DNA of 41,849 nucleotides from a virus. Its lineage: Duplodnaviria > Heunggongvirae > Uroviricota > Caudoviricetes. Position 1 is the first letter of the stretch. Each line of letters begins with the position of its first letter. Below the pieces are notes generated by a model, which did not search any database, was not told where the DNA came from, and saw only the letters and a program-made list of their open reading frames with translations. A program made the translations under genes and the position numbers. Positions 58 through 39,744 of this stretch are shown one piece after another. The stretch covers positions 1-41,849 of IMG/VR virus record IMGVR_UViG_3300027796_000011; one strand, given 5' to 3'.

Positions 58-71
58 TGAAATCAACTTCA
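58..71. promoter_or_regulatory. Palindromic operator-like site TGAAATCAACTTCA
   Basis: Perfect match to recurrent TGMARTYRAYTKCA; just downstream of promoter 113-85. Confidence 0.7.
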
Positions 72-84
72 CTCTTCGGGAGAC

Positions 85-113
85 AACTTAATCACTTTCT
101 CTAGGTTTGTCAA
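85..113 (-). promoter_or_regulatory. sigma70 promoter
   Basis: TTGACA (113-108), 17 nt, TAAGTT (90-85). Confidence 0.7.
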
Positions 114-135
114 GTCATTTTTTCAAAGTTTTTTG

Positions 136-161
136 TGGCGGGAAGGCAGTCCCTCCCGCCA
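136..161. terminator. GC-rich hairpin after gene 176-685, possible terminator
   Basis: TGGCGGGA/TCCCGCCA 8-bp stem; no clear U tract on the - strand. Confidence 0.3.
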
Positions 162-175
162 AACTGCAAGAATAC

Positions 176-685
176 CTATTCAGGGATGGTGTAGAGGCTA
201 TAGTGACTCAAATCCAGTTTAGGATGCCCTGCTTTTTCATGCAATCCAGCAATCACCTTGAAACCAGAGTACTCAAAAAACACTTCCCCTTCAGGCATAC
301 CATCATAAATAAATGCGCCACTAGGCACATCCAAAGCGGCTACAATGGCCTCCTCAAACTCCTTCCGCCGCTTCGCACTACAAGACAGGTGCGCCGACAC
401 CTTCAAGCATACGGCGGGTAGGAACTCCACCAAAGAACCGTTAAGGCCACCAATAATAGCAGGGATAGCCTTTCCGGCAAACGTAGACTTAACTCGGATA
501 GCGTCAACAGCAACACCCGTCACTGCCATTTTCTCAAACATCTTCGGAGAAAAAGCGATAGGTGCGTCAGGAACCTCGGCAACAAAACTTGCAGTGAACC
601 AATGCGCCGGGGAGTCTTCCCGCAACGCAGCACGTTCTTCAATAACATCCAAGTCCTCCACAAACAAATAGACAATACTTTTCAT
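176..685 (-). CDS. Hypothetical protein (169 aa)
   Basis: ORF with GGAG RBS, downstream of promoter 799-771; no recognisable motif. Confidence 0.75.
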   Translation of the reverse strand: MKSIVYLFVEDLDVIEERAALREDSPAHWFTASFVAEVPDAPIAFSPKMFEKMAVTGVAVDAIRVKSTFAGKAIPAIIGGLNGSLVEFLPAVCLKVSAHLSCSAKRRKEFEEAIVAALDVPSGAFIYDGMPEGEVFFEYSGFKVIAGLHEKAGHPKLDLSHYSLYTIPE

Positions 686-714
686 CTCCCACTCCTACGG
701 TTATAGGGTTATTT

Positions 715-38306: not shown

Positions 38307-38316
38307 GAATGTTCCT

Positions 38317-38742
38317 TTACTTTGACTTGGTTTTCGACTTGCTCTTCAGTCGTTTGGCTGCGTCTCCAAGGAAGACATCATCCAACTTTGTGACTACATC
38401 TACTTCCCAAGCGGTTAAAGGGAACTTACGGAGGCGTGTCCAACTTTCAATCTCTGTATAGGTTATGGGGGAGGGTCCGAATCCGTTGCTACCCCGCTTC
38501 CTGCTCATCTCGAAAAAAGCGACTAGAAGATAATCAAGTTCGTGCGGGATATCGGCTTCTTCGTCTAAGTCTCTGATTGCGGGGTTGGAGGCTTCAAACA
38601 GTAACCTCTCACCCTCTGGCAACCCCTTCATCTGGTCACGAACCTGCTCAAGATGCTCACGCATGGTGTTTCCATCTTCCTGGATAACATCATACGTGAG
38701 CTTCTGTGCAAGAGCTTCTTCAAGTCGCTCTATTAGTTTCCC
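38317..38742 (-). CDS. Tail assembly chaperone, -1 frameshift extension (GT-like)
   Basis: Reading frame open from the slippery site through MREHLEQV...; FF..SR.R..GFGPSPITYTEIESW..L...L..WE...I..LD motif; could also start at ATG 38664. Confidence 0.8.
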   Translation of the reverse strand, partial: GKLIERLEEALAQKLTYDVIQEDGNTMREHLEQVRDQMKGLPEGERLLFEASNPAIRDLDEEADIPHELDYLLVAFFEMSRKRGSNGFGPSPITYTEIESWTRLRKFPLTAWEVDVVTKLDDVFLGDAAKRLKSKSKTKSK

Positions 38743-39119
38743 AGGAAGTTACCCCGATCACCAATAGCCATATCAACCTGCTCCTTCATCCAGGGGTAGG
38801 TACGATACACCTTCTTGGCATTGTCCACGGTGAAGGGAACGGTGACACCATCCTCCTCAACACCCTCCCACGCCATAGTGCAGTGGGCCAGGAGGTCAAT
38901 GGCCTCATTCTCCAGTTCTTCAGCGCGGGTCTTGAACTTCTTGTCGTTCAGACGCTTGTTCAGCAGCTTGCGCTGCGCCTTGCGGTACAGGTCGGAGTCC
39001 GACCCGGCCACAGTGATGGTGATGCCCAGAGGATCGCCGGTCACAGGATGCACAACGTCAACAGTCGTACCAGCGTTAGCCAGAGTCACCACATCCAGGT
39101 TCTTCAGATCAAATCCCAT
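38733..39119 (-). CDS. Tail assembly chaperone (G-like), 128 aa
   Basis: HPVTG.PLGITITVAGSDS..YR...W.G...F...NA......PW...QV....GDR.NF; ATG 39119 with GGGAG RBS. Confidence 0.85.
   Translation of the reverse strand: MGFDLKNLDVVTLANAGTTVDVVHPVTGDPLGITITVAGSDSDLYRKAQRKLLNKRLNDKKFKTRAEELENEAIDLLAHCTMAWEGVEEDGVTVPFTVDNAKKVYRTYPWMKEQVDMAIGDRGNFLGN
38736..38742 (-). promoter_or_regulatory. Programmed -1 frameshift slippery site G GGA AAC
   Basis: X XXY YYZ heptamer directly before the TAA of the chaperone; -1 frame is open into the next ORF. Confidence 0.85.
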
Positions 39120-39235
39120 TTTCTCTTCTCCCATCAGAATGTTTTTCCATCGCTTTGTGGATTTCTTGGGGCGGCTGGATGAGCGATGGGTTCCATCCAC
39201 GGTCTAGAGCCGTTTGCCGCCCCAACTTTTATGAT

Positions 39236-39709
39236 CTACCCCAGAAATTCTTGGGGGAAACCAGACAGACCAATCGCACGGCCTTCAAGGCGGGGGAGGG
39301 CATATTGCCAACCCTCTTCATCCGCTTTGGACACACCCACCCCACAAAAAACAATGGTCGCTTCAGGATCGCACTCAAGCACCATCAGGGCAGCATACAA
39401 CGCAGAGCCTCCACCACTCATCAAGGTCTGGTAGGACTCGCTGCCGGGGGTGGGAAACCAAGACACTTCAGTATACTCTTCAGAGATGCCCTGCTCTGCC
39501 CGGATGTGCCTCCAGGCGTCCGAGACGCCACTGTAAGCCACCCAAATGTCGATGGGCTTGGGGCATGTCATCCCGGCCTCTTCAACGCCTACAAAGGCGT
39601 ATTCGCCGTCCAGAAACACCATGTCATCCAGGGCTTCGGAGTTCCCACCGAAGATCACATATTTGTGGGTAACTGGAACCTCAAAAGAGACTGTTTTTGC
39701 TTTAGCCAC
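39236..39709 (-). CDS. Putative DUF115/MptE-like or sialyltransferase-fold protein
   Basis: VIFGGNS, IDIWVAY, GGGSALYAALMVL...IVFCGV, R..GLSG...E.LG patterns; fold assignment by eye only. Confidence 0.5.
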   Translation of the reverse strand: MAKAKTVSFEVPVTHKYVIFGGNSEALDDMVFLDGEYAFVGVEEAGMTCPKPIDIWVAYSGVSDAWRHIRAEQGISEEYTEVSWFPTPGSESYQTLMSGGGSALYAALMVLECDPEATIVFCGVGVSKADEEGWQYALPRLEGRAIGLSGFPQEFLG

Positions 39710-39723
39710 TGTATGCCTCCCGC

Positions 39724-39744
39724 TTTTTCACATTGACTTCAAAA
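39724..39744 (-). promoter_or_regulatory. Variant operator-like site TTTTGAAGTCAATGTGAAAAA
   Basis: 21-bp exact match to 14441-14461; fills most of the gap before gene 39709. Confidence 0.7.

Follow-up and report, generated by a model that had tools for sequence, protein, structure and literature searches.

A dispersed 14-base palindrome adjoining promoters and gene boundaries in a 106-kb phage genome, and a MerR-type protein as its candidate binder

Which protein, if any, reads a 14-base DNA palindrome that is present in some 40 copies in a single phage genome, adjoining promoters and gene boundaries? The question is raised by an uncultured phage of 106 kb (unique genome 105.8 kb, 100%-complete; IMG/VR record IMGVR_UViG_3300027796_000011). 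In its window, which is the whole stretch of 41,849 nucleotides analysed here, a first-pass annotation had listed twelve copies and had interpreted them as operators of one dimeric regulator, comparable to the stoperators of mycobacteriophages L5 and Bxb1. To our knowledge the dispersed sites of one regulator are known in few phage groups, namely the L5/Bxb1 stoperators, the function of which is known, and the Cluster O dyad repeats, the function of which is unknown; the C1 operators of P1 and the inverted repeats of phiC31 are other site sets of this kind. No published description of the present palindrome system was found. We propose, with a probability of roughly one half, that the palindromes are docking sites for a conserved phage MerR-type protein, which as a dimer would control transcription genome-wide.

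The consensus TGMARTYRAYTKCA has eight perfect matches in the window against 0.01 expected from 100 dinucleotide shuffles, and all twelve copies listed earlier were found at their positions, including those placed in the 5' end of a gene (1828), in the portal gene (16417) and in the tape measure gene (34680). The mismatch scan of the window gave four additional two-mismatch matches (5265, 13155, 20708 and 28072), which are at chance level and were lost in the scan with an iterated 22-bp profile, where exactly the twelve listed sites were recovered. Genome-wide the profile detected 43 sites in 105.8 kb against 0.8 expected under a second-order Markov null, and the observation made in the first-pass annotation is confirmed. 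The terminal repeat of 165 bp contains one site, positions 58 and 105900 being the same copy. The sites are spread across the whole genome and are not restricted to one chromosomal domain, the largest gap being 9.2 kb. Apart from the three copies at 1828, 16417 and 34680, the sites of the window lie in short gaps or adjoin promoter-like sequences; promoters and transcription starts are consensus predictions throughout. The features are the following:

58–71, no strand: perfect site within the terminal repeat (165 bp), lying upstream of the gene that is continued at the right genome end and ~35 nt downstream of a -35-like TTGACA in leftward orientation
715–728, no strand: perfect site in front of leftward gene 176–685 (29 nt to its start codon), within the predicted 5' UTR of a leftward promoter-like sequence (799–771)
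1828–1841, no strand: perfect site, codons 19–23 (5' end) of gene 1772–2956, which has a strong SD and its ATG at 1772; directly after a GC-rich hairpin (1805–1821); the start predicted for promoter 1706–1734 is ~93 nt upstream
6614–6627, no strand: two-mismatch variant site TGAAGTCAATGTGA, centre ~+5 of promoter-like sequence 6579–6607; the -35 of another promoter-like sequence (6667–6694) follows after 40 nt
9148–9804, + strand: candidate binder gene, 218 aa, between the SF2 helicase and the RecA module
10041–10054, no strand: perfect site within the 3'-terminal 53 nt of the conserved small gene 9671/9752–10093, 50 nt upstream of the recA start (10105)
14445–14458, no strand: two-mismatch variant site, centre ~-50 of a leftward promoter-like sequence (14436–14409) whose -35 is 8 nt downstream; the site abuts a terminator-like hairpin
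16417–16430, no strand: one-mismatch site inside portal codons 35–39
19249–19262, no strand: perfect site, 4 nt past the stop of gene 19267–19542; the leftward promoter-like sequence of PolA has its -35 26 nt downstream of the site (site centre ~-68)
23466–23479, no strand: perfect site occupying the gap that separates the GH108 lysin stop (at 4 nt) from the start of gene 23036–23440 (at 25 nt)
25690–25703, no strand: perfect site in front of the REC-PAS gene, whose start (25668) is 21 nt away
34680–34693, no strand: perfect site deep within the tape measure gene (2451 aa)
39728–39741, no strand: two-mismatch variant site, 3 nt from the stop of gene 39745–40164 and 18 nt from the start of gene 39236–39709

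The extended consensus is TTTT-TGAAGT(TG/CA/TA)ACTTCA-AAAA, in which a CG centre was never seen among the copies, and in the 22 perfect copies the TG of positions 1-2 and the CA of positions 13-14 are invariant. The motif acts at the DNA level, as a double-stranded element: in 16 genomes 353 changes affect one arm only and 10 are compensatory, so that the two arms vary independently, and in none of the copies is a hairpin followed on the transcribed strand by a U-run; the T-run stands 5' and the A-run 3' of the palindrome in both orientations. An intercistronic hairpin, a processing site or a terminator acting in the RNA might be suspected from the many copies that are transcribed 16-32 nt upstream of start codons, nevertheless the stem is AT-rich, the loop has 2-4 nt and many copies are located upstream of promoters. 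Such an RNA-level role is most improbable, and both the intrinsic terminator and the RNA hairpin were rejected on the missing U-run and the missing covariation.

The exact motif gave only single chance matches in IMG/VR (four contigs of ~100 kb with a match, one copy each), a megablast search against phage records gave no match, and the relatives identified through PolA were also devoid of it. This absence could have been taken for non-conservation, a reading overturned by de novo palindrome counting, since these relatives carry palindrome variants of their own. The present genome and 15 relatives, including the cultured Stenotrophomonas phages DLP5 and DLP3, have a common core gene set (Delepquintavirus-related), and all 16 genomes contain local variants of TGxAxx-NN-xxTxCA, 15-44 copies in each. 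The family comprises genomes of ~100 kb with GC contents of 37–58%, and the nucleotide alignment of the relatives covers at most 19%, i.e. there is almost no similarity between genomes. The terminal TG/CA is kept in 15 of the 16 consensuses, the exception, G023, having CG, and in all 16 genomes the sites are rarer deep inside genes.

Footprinting of site positions is impossible between distant relatives because their genomes barely align, and it was carried out on the pair DLP5/DLP3, in which the motif is 96.4% identical and its flanks are 83.4% identical (P = 2e-10), intragenic copies included. The sites are under purifying selection, and the conservation extends to the copies within genes. 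In published work on these two phages no mention of the motif was found. A packaging or terminal-repeat signal was discarded, as a site lies inside the terminal repeat only in this genome, and recognition by the phage C5 methylase was dismissed for want of a short, methylase-type conserved core in the 14-bp site.

The sites are positioned relative to sigma70-like promoters. In this genome 10 of 17 strong promoter-like sequences have a nearby site, against 1.2 at random, and family-wide the figure is 30 of 101 against ~5; a separate promoter scan agrees with this association. Site centres relative to the predicted starts are found at ~-50, -61, -68, -81 or at +5 to +35, the positions ~-50 and -61 recurring in ten genomes, and 18 of the 30 promoter-associated centres (in 10 genomes) fall at -45 to -62. 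The placement of about one third of the promoter-associated sites at ~-50/-61 is typical of upstream activators or repressors that act via the alpha subunit of RNA polymerase, and not of roadblocks. Canonical operators of the MerR family (MerR, CueR, SoxR, BmrR) are likewise palindromes bound by a dimeric winged-helix protein, and the central AAGTTAACTT of some copies presumably resembles the SoxR box; however, those operators occupy the spacer that separates -35 from -10, elongated to 19-20 bp, with a single site at each promoter of the regulon. No site here lies within such a spacer of a predicted promoter, and the MerR-type spacer operator was rejected on these positions.

Palindromic symmetry, independently varying half-sites, purifying selection and the tie to sigma70-like promoters bear out one part of the first-pass annotation: the copies have the character of DNA binding sites for a protein dimer. 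The stoperator analogy, its other part, fails because the L5/Bxb1 sites are asymmetric and oriented with transcription, a defining feature, while the sites here are palindromic; the strong and weak halves and the TG/CA centre occur in both orientations relative to transcription, and in DLP5 the centres CA and TG are in a ratio of 23:11, with nearly all annotated genes on one strand. Certainly the Cluster A stoperators (bound by L5 gp71 and Bxb1 gp69) are alike in their dozens of copies dispersed over both arms, mostly in short intergenic gaps, and in their proposed genome-wide effect on transcription, but they are 13-bp sites of the immunity repressor, whereas the candidate binder here is of the MerR type and is encoded in the replication operon.

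Another parallel is the 17-bp dyad repeat of Cluster O mycobacteriophages, TGTTCGG-N3-CCGAACA (PMC4351075). More than 30 copies of this single palindrome are distributed through a siphophage genome, many of them intergenic and about one third in coding sequence, without orientation bias, and its binder and function are unknown (PMC4351075). It differs in its 7-3-7 motif and spacing, in that neither promoter-relative placement nor a candidate binder has been reported, and in its restriction to a narrow cluster of five phages (PMC4351075), in contrast to the broad family with motif variants described here.

The leading candidate for the binder is the product of 9148–9804, one of the proteins already named in the first-pass annotation and, judged from sequence and a structural model, probably the best of them. 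It consists of 218 aa, a long helix at the N-terminus being combined with a winged helix-turn-helix of the MerR type; in the AF2 model the helix has 44 residues, and the top fold matches, PDB 5i44 among them, are all MerR-family DNA-binding domains, with weak Foldseek E-values (0.04-0.5). The protein itself reached no Pfam MerR model, its orthologues pass the MerR_1 cut-off, and it aligns end to end with the relatives' versions. A word-index search for homologues returned only one near-identical protein, whereas a full HMM search, which proved necessary here, gave a protein family of roughly 1,500 clusters. A MerR-like homologue is present in all eight relatives that are at least 90% complete, and in the genomes checked (this phage, G006, DLP5/DLP3) its gene stands between the helicase and RecA genes; it belongs to a replication/recombination operon and not to an immunity locus. 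Among the core families it is the only one with a recognisable sequence-specific DNA-binding fold. The palindrome of the genome encoding it is TGAAGTCAACTTCA, and that of DLP5, where the candidate is DLP05_060, is TGCAATCAATTGCA; the link between recognition-helix residue and half-site type comprises only about three independent events.

The sites may also be regulatory and bound by a different phage protein or by a host factor, which we regard as unlikely. G006 and G019 have the same motif and very different MerR-like sequences, the RHH-like protein of 73 aa (912–1133), suggested earlier as a binder, adjoins site 715 and weakly matches a PHROG 'transcriptional repressor' family, and conserved small proteins (9671–10093, 6763–7581 and 88025–88993) could serve as alternative binders. 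However, neither the RHH-like protein nor the sigma70-r4 protein (97599–98420) has a detectable homologue in G006 or DLP5, both of which keep the motif system, and both candidates were rejected. An immunity repressor in this role would amount to the prophage-silencing stoperator model of the first-pass annotation. DLP5 and DLP3 are indeed temperate (PMC5834331, PMC7326821) and the present phage has an integrase-family gene, nevertheless no HTH of the CI/Cro type was found among 119 small ORFs, and the palindromic sites show no stoperator-like orientation. As for the host, the motif variants differ between phages across the GC range of the family, therefore a phage-encoded factor fits better.

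Partition sites of the ParB/KorB kind (parS/OB-like), serving both partition and silencing of a plasmid-prophage, are very improbable. The OB sites of KorB from plasmid RK2 are one palindromic operator, dispersed at, near and far from promoters, and DLP5, which is maintained as a phagemid, encodes two ParB-domain proteins. KorB, however, belongs to the ParB family, and while ParB_N (PF02195) matches were found in four relatives, there is none in this 100%-complete genome with its ~40 sites, and ParB was rejected as the binder.

The main rival to transcription control by the MerR-type protein is an architectural or genome-marking role, comparable with RacA/ram, MatP/matS and Noc/NBS, in which pairs of dimer and site organise, bridge, compact or tether the phage chromosome, effects on transcription are incidental, and coding sequence is avoided only because sites are more readily retained outside it. 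RacA, a member of the MerR superfamily, binds a 14-bp palindrome, the terminal TG/CA steps of which matter for binding (PMC4914108). The ram site of Bacillus subtilis resembles the present one in length, in its essential terminal TG/CA and in its ~25 dispersed copies (PMC4914108), and RacA too combines a MerR-superfamily winged helix with a coiled-coil or long helical region. In the candidate binder the helical region precedes the DNA-binding domain, and the likeness to RacA is one of fold. The ram sites are unlike the phage sites in being GC-rich, confined to the origin-proximal region of the chromosome and used for anchoring during sporulation, whereas the phage sites extend over the whole genome, favour gene boundaries and recur at fixed distances from promoters.

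In 12 of the 16 genomes the sites are significantly more evenly spaced than expected at random (CV 0.44-0.64 against ~0.95), and many sites are conserved within genes, 69% of the DLP5 sites lying deep inside them. Both observations speak against promoter control and are explained more directly by an architectural role. On the other hand, the spacing in this genome is not significantly regular (CV 0.81), and the recurring placement at ~-50/-61 and ~+5 of sigma70-like promoters in ten unrelated-looking genomes is not expected from such a role, which we consider possible and clearly less probable than transcription control.

In the transcriptional reading that we prefer, the palindromes would be double-stranded sites for a phage-encoded dimer, the MerR-type protein made from the replication/recombination operon, each TGAAGT-type half-site being recognised by one subunit with a flexible TG/CA/TA step at the centre. 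Where a site directly precedes the -35 of a strong sigma70-type promoter (centre ~-50/-61), or closely follows the start (+5 to +35), initiation would be modulated by the bound dimer, either by shut-off or by stimulation, and at the remaining sites, at cistron boundaries and within genes, the dimer could be a roadblock or an insulator.

The two roles might also be joined. Tentatively, one conserved MerR/RacA-type protein together with evenly spaced palindromes, placed in genes and gaps alike, may form a whole-chromosome marking system in a family of ~100-kb siphophages that includes Delepquintavirus, and this system would link promoter control to the organisation of the genome by bridging or insulation roughly every 3 kb; we know of no such system described for phages. 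The motif system is common to a wide family, including the cultured and genetically tractable DLP5 and DLP3, and offers both a definite candidate for the binding protein and exact predictions, open to test, of where sites lie at promoters. Should the proposal be true, it would provide a simple handle on the transcription programme of the family and, in its naturally matched variants of protein and operator, a series in which the evolution of MerR-type recognition may be followed.

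The palindromes of this phage are selected DNA sites of the dimer type, common to a family of phages and positioned with respect to promoters and the boundaries of genes. The degenerate pattern TGMARTYRAYTKCA gave eight perfect matches in the window versus 0.01 in dinucleotide shuffles, all where the first-pass annotation had put them; its one-mismatch copy (16417) and two-mismatch copies (6614, 14445 and 39728) were also present as stated, and four further two-mismatch matches in the window are at chance level. The window covers the initial 41.8 kb of a virus record whose full length is 106,007 bp (CheckV completeness 100%) and in which 23 perfect matches were found, 22 of them unique; sites 58 and 105900 are one copy because of the 165-bp terminal repeat. 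The full motif, TTTT-TGAAGT-(TG/CA/TA)-ACTTCA-AAAA, is longer than the pattern, and the central dinucleotide CG is absent from every copy. An iterated profile recovered 43 sites in the genome versus 0.8 in Markov nulls, which bears out the supposed enrichment, and its output in the window was exactly the 12 sites annotated earlier.

Three classes of sites were defined by reading along the direction of transcription. Class A sites lie 7-10 nt upstream of a consensus TTGACA, frequently directly after a terminator; in class B the palindrome fills the tight gap from a stop codon to the next ribosome-binding site, 16-32 nt 5' of the start; class C sites follow a promoter-like sequence, at about +5 to +35.

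Sites in the three classes (start coordinates; classes A, B and C are given as examples)
Class A, upstream of promoters: 14445, 53911, 65981, 66731, 69533, 69930, 70700, 72440, 73177, 76181, 80741
Class A, looser cases: 19249, 51807
Class B, between cistrons: 23466, 25690, 39728, 42192, 46503, 83668, 93320, 101097
Class C, just downstream of promoters: 6614, 104169, 102883, 715, 51904

A nearby site (centre from -110 to +70) was found at 10 of the 17 strong promoter-like sequences of this genome, that is, those matching at least 11 of 12 positions, against 1.2 at random (maximum 6 in 1000 trials). A separate promoter scan also predicts promoters with 11/12 matches next to sites 6614, 14445 and 19249, and one with 10/12 next to site 715. 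The placement in tight intercistronic gaps and beside promoters, as it had been described before, is real, and the copies regarded as intragenic (1828, 16417 and 34680) are truly within genes. Site 51807 stands midway in a divergent promoter pair, 19-20 nt from either -35, so that at genome 51720-51945 one palindrome is common to two divergent consensus promoters; the rightward promoter, that of a PhoH-like gene, has palindrome 51904 at about +35, and this layout suggests looping.

Some local arrangements were also recognized. At several gene ends the upstream gene runs into the palindrome, its end overlapping the TGA with which the palindrome opens on the transcribed strand; at genome 83679-83681 this TGA is the gene's stop codon. 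At least 11 early-type promoter cassettes (window 14409-14436; genome 53934-80730) with common -35 flanks, a CATACT or TATACT -10 and the conserved 5' UTR CAACAAATCGGGAGGG precede small genes, and near-identical duplicates occur among them (e.g. 69930, 70700, 80741). Window 1706-1841 holds a consensus promoter (TTGACA-17-TATCAT), a strong SD and an ATG at 1772; within the first 20 codons come a GC-rich hairpin plus T-run (1805-1827) and, after these, the palindrome. This arrangement, with which the replication operon begins, resembles an attenuator or pause signal.

The exact motif was not found in any relative searched, local variants of it being present instead. G006, a distant relative whose PolA is 37% identical, carries TTT-TGCAAACGTTTGCA-AAA in about 20 copies at similar kinds of location, the cultured Stenotrophomonas phage DLP5 (Delepquintavirus) carries TGCAAT-NN-ATTGCA 27 times exactly and 38 times within two mismatches, and a capsid-protein search gave 80 related loci, many of which have 14-bp palindromes of their own in the same layout. 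In a set of 16 genomes (this one, 13 further fetched genomes, G006 and DLP5) TGxAxx-NN-xxTxCA occurs in all, with 15-44 copies each; the type of palindrome is conserved in these relatives. The nucleotide aligned fraction among these genomes is at most 0.19, and G006 and the related G019 have an identical palindrome despite no detectable nucleotide similarity. The DLP5 motif as an exact string had no match in the literature searched, and neither "palindrom" nor "promoter" occurs in the text of the DLP3 paper.

Family-wide, 30 of the 101 strong promoter-like sequences have a nearby site versus about 5 at random; 18 of these 30 site centres are between -45 and -62 and cluster at about -50/-51 and -60/-62. 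Duplication of promoter cassettes within one genome is ruled out as the source of this fixed distance, because the positions recur in ten genomes. Sites deep inside genes were depleted in 16/16 genomes (17-69% vs 75-87% expected). Between DLP5 and its cultured relative DLP3, 82% identical across the first 50 kb, identity is 96.4% in the motif columns and 83.4% in the 40-nt flanks (Fisher P = 2e-10), intragenic copies included; the few motif changes are mostly at the tolerated central dinucleotide.

A terminator or a structured RNA could be excluded. Arm changes across the 16 genomes were single-arm in 353 cases and compensatory Watson-Crick in 10, in the present genome one half-site is near TGAAGTC and its partner can be TGCAAT, TCACAT, TCCCAT or CGCAGT, and a hairpin with a U-run is formed by no copy, because on either strand the palindrome is preceded by the T-run and followed by the A-run. 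Judged from sequence, the palindromes fit a dimeric DNA-binding protein, in line with the dimeric regulator suggested earlier. Nine sites join a consensus half to a TCACAT/TCCCAT half (window 6614, 14445, 39728; genome 69533, 69930, 70700, 72440, 73177, 80741), seven of them directly 5' of early promoters; such halves could mean tuned affinity, UP element overlap or a second specificity.

The ribbon-helix-helix-like protein of 73 aa (912-1133, +), which weakly matches a PHROG 'transcriptional repressor' family, is encoded about 180 nt away from site 715 and was previously named as a candidate binder, has no detectable homologue in G006 or DLP5, which keep the palindromes. Among 119 small ORFs screened with Pfam, the sole DNA-binding family was that of a sigma70 region-4 protein, also without detectable homologue in G006 or DLP5. 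This protein (genome 97599-98420, -) has a C-terminal region 4 above the Pfam cut-off in a six-frame search and no recognisable region 2; it could be either a sigma factor of the phage or a DNA binder with region 4 only. Other genes noticed encode a C-5 cytosine DNA methylase (genome 94230-95588) and a class II-like ribonucleotide reductase with a TSCPD domain (genome 98257-101070).

A better candidate is the MerR-type protein encoded at 9148-9804 (+), the positional counterpart, as in DLP3 and G006, of a "transcriptional regulator" annotated in DLP5 between the SF2 helicase and RecA genes. Of these proteins, those of DLP5 and G006 score above the Pfam MerR_1 cut-off; the 9148-9804 protein itself is below it, and aligns end to end with 15 orthologues. 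The alignment shows a helix with WY..NK..RR.KY at the N terminus, a helix-turn-helix, the motif IPEP and a tryptophan at the C terminus. In its AF2 model (pLDDT 77) a helix of 44 residues precedes a winged helix-turn-helix, and the top fold matches are all MerR-family DNA-binding domains, including RacA, BldC and SoxR (probability 0.9-1.0, weak E-values of 0.04-0.5). The family profile found a homologue in 8/8 relatives at least 90% complete, and 1,471 protein clusters in the full library at E <= 1e-10. Members include tandem two-copy forms (many matches of about 270 aa) and proteins of up to 1015 aa with 8-16 repeated MerR-like stretches (tandem or repeat examples P0004, P0009, P0106). Among the core families, shared by all 16 genomes or almost all of them, are three further proteins of unknown function, in which no recognisable DNA-binding domain was found. 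The threonine of T[ILV]R in the recognition helix is present in 11/11 genomes with the half-site TGCAA(A/G/T) and missing in five with deviant half-sites (TGAAGT, TGAAAT, TGAACA, TGCACT, TGYAAT), an apparent covariation which is a lead, with only about three independent events. We consider it an even chance (about 0.5) that the MerR-type protein binds the palindromes.

Four known systems come closest: the Cluster O 17-bp dyad repeat, stoperators, KorB/OB and RacA/ram. Stoperators are by definition asymmetric and oriented, and the present sites are palindromic, so the stoperator likeness proposed at first fails in a defining feature. KorB/OB requires a ParB-family binder, which this genome does not have (no ParB_N domain was found). 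For the Cluster O repeat both function and binder are unknown (PMC4351075). For RacA, the chromosome-anchoring protein of Bacillus subtilis, the target is a 14-bp palindrome, and its terminal TG/CA steps are important for binding (PMC4914108); an architectural role of this kind is the main rival explanation. In its favour are the conserved copies inside genes and the site spacing, more even than random in 12/16 genomes; in this genome regular spacing was not significant (CV = 0.81).

In the transcriptional reading, a dimer at -50/-61 and at +5 to +35 would modulate initiation from sigma70-type promoters, and at sites elsewhere the bound protein may block or insulate transcription. The candidate gene is located in the replication operon, outside any immunity locus, which speaks for a role during the lytic cycle and makes a classical prophage repressor less likely.
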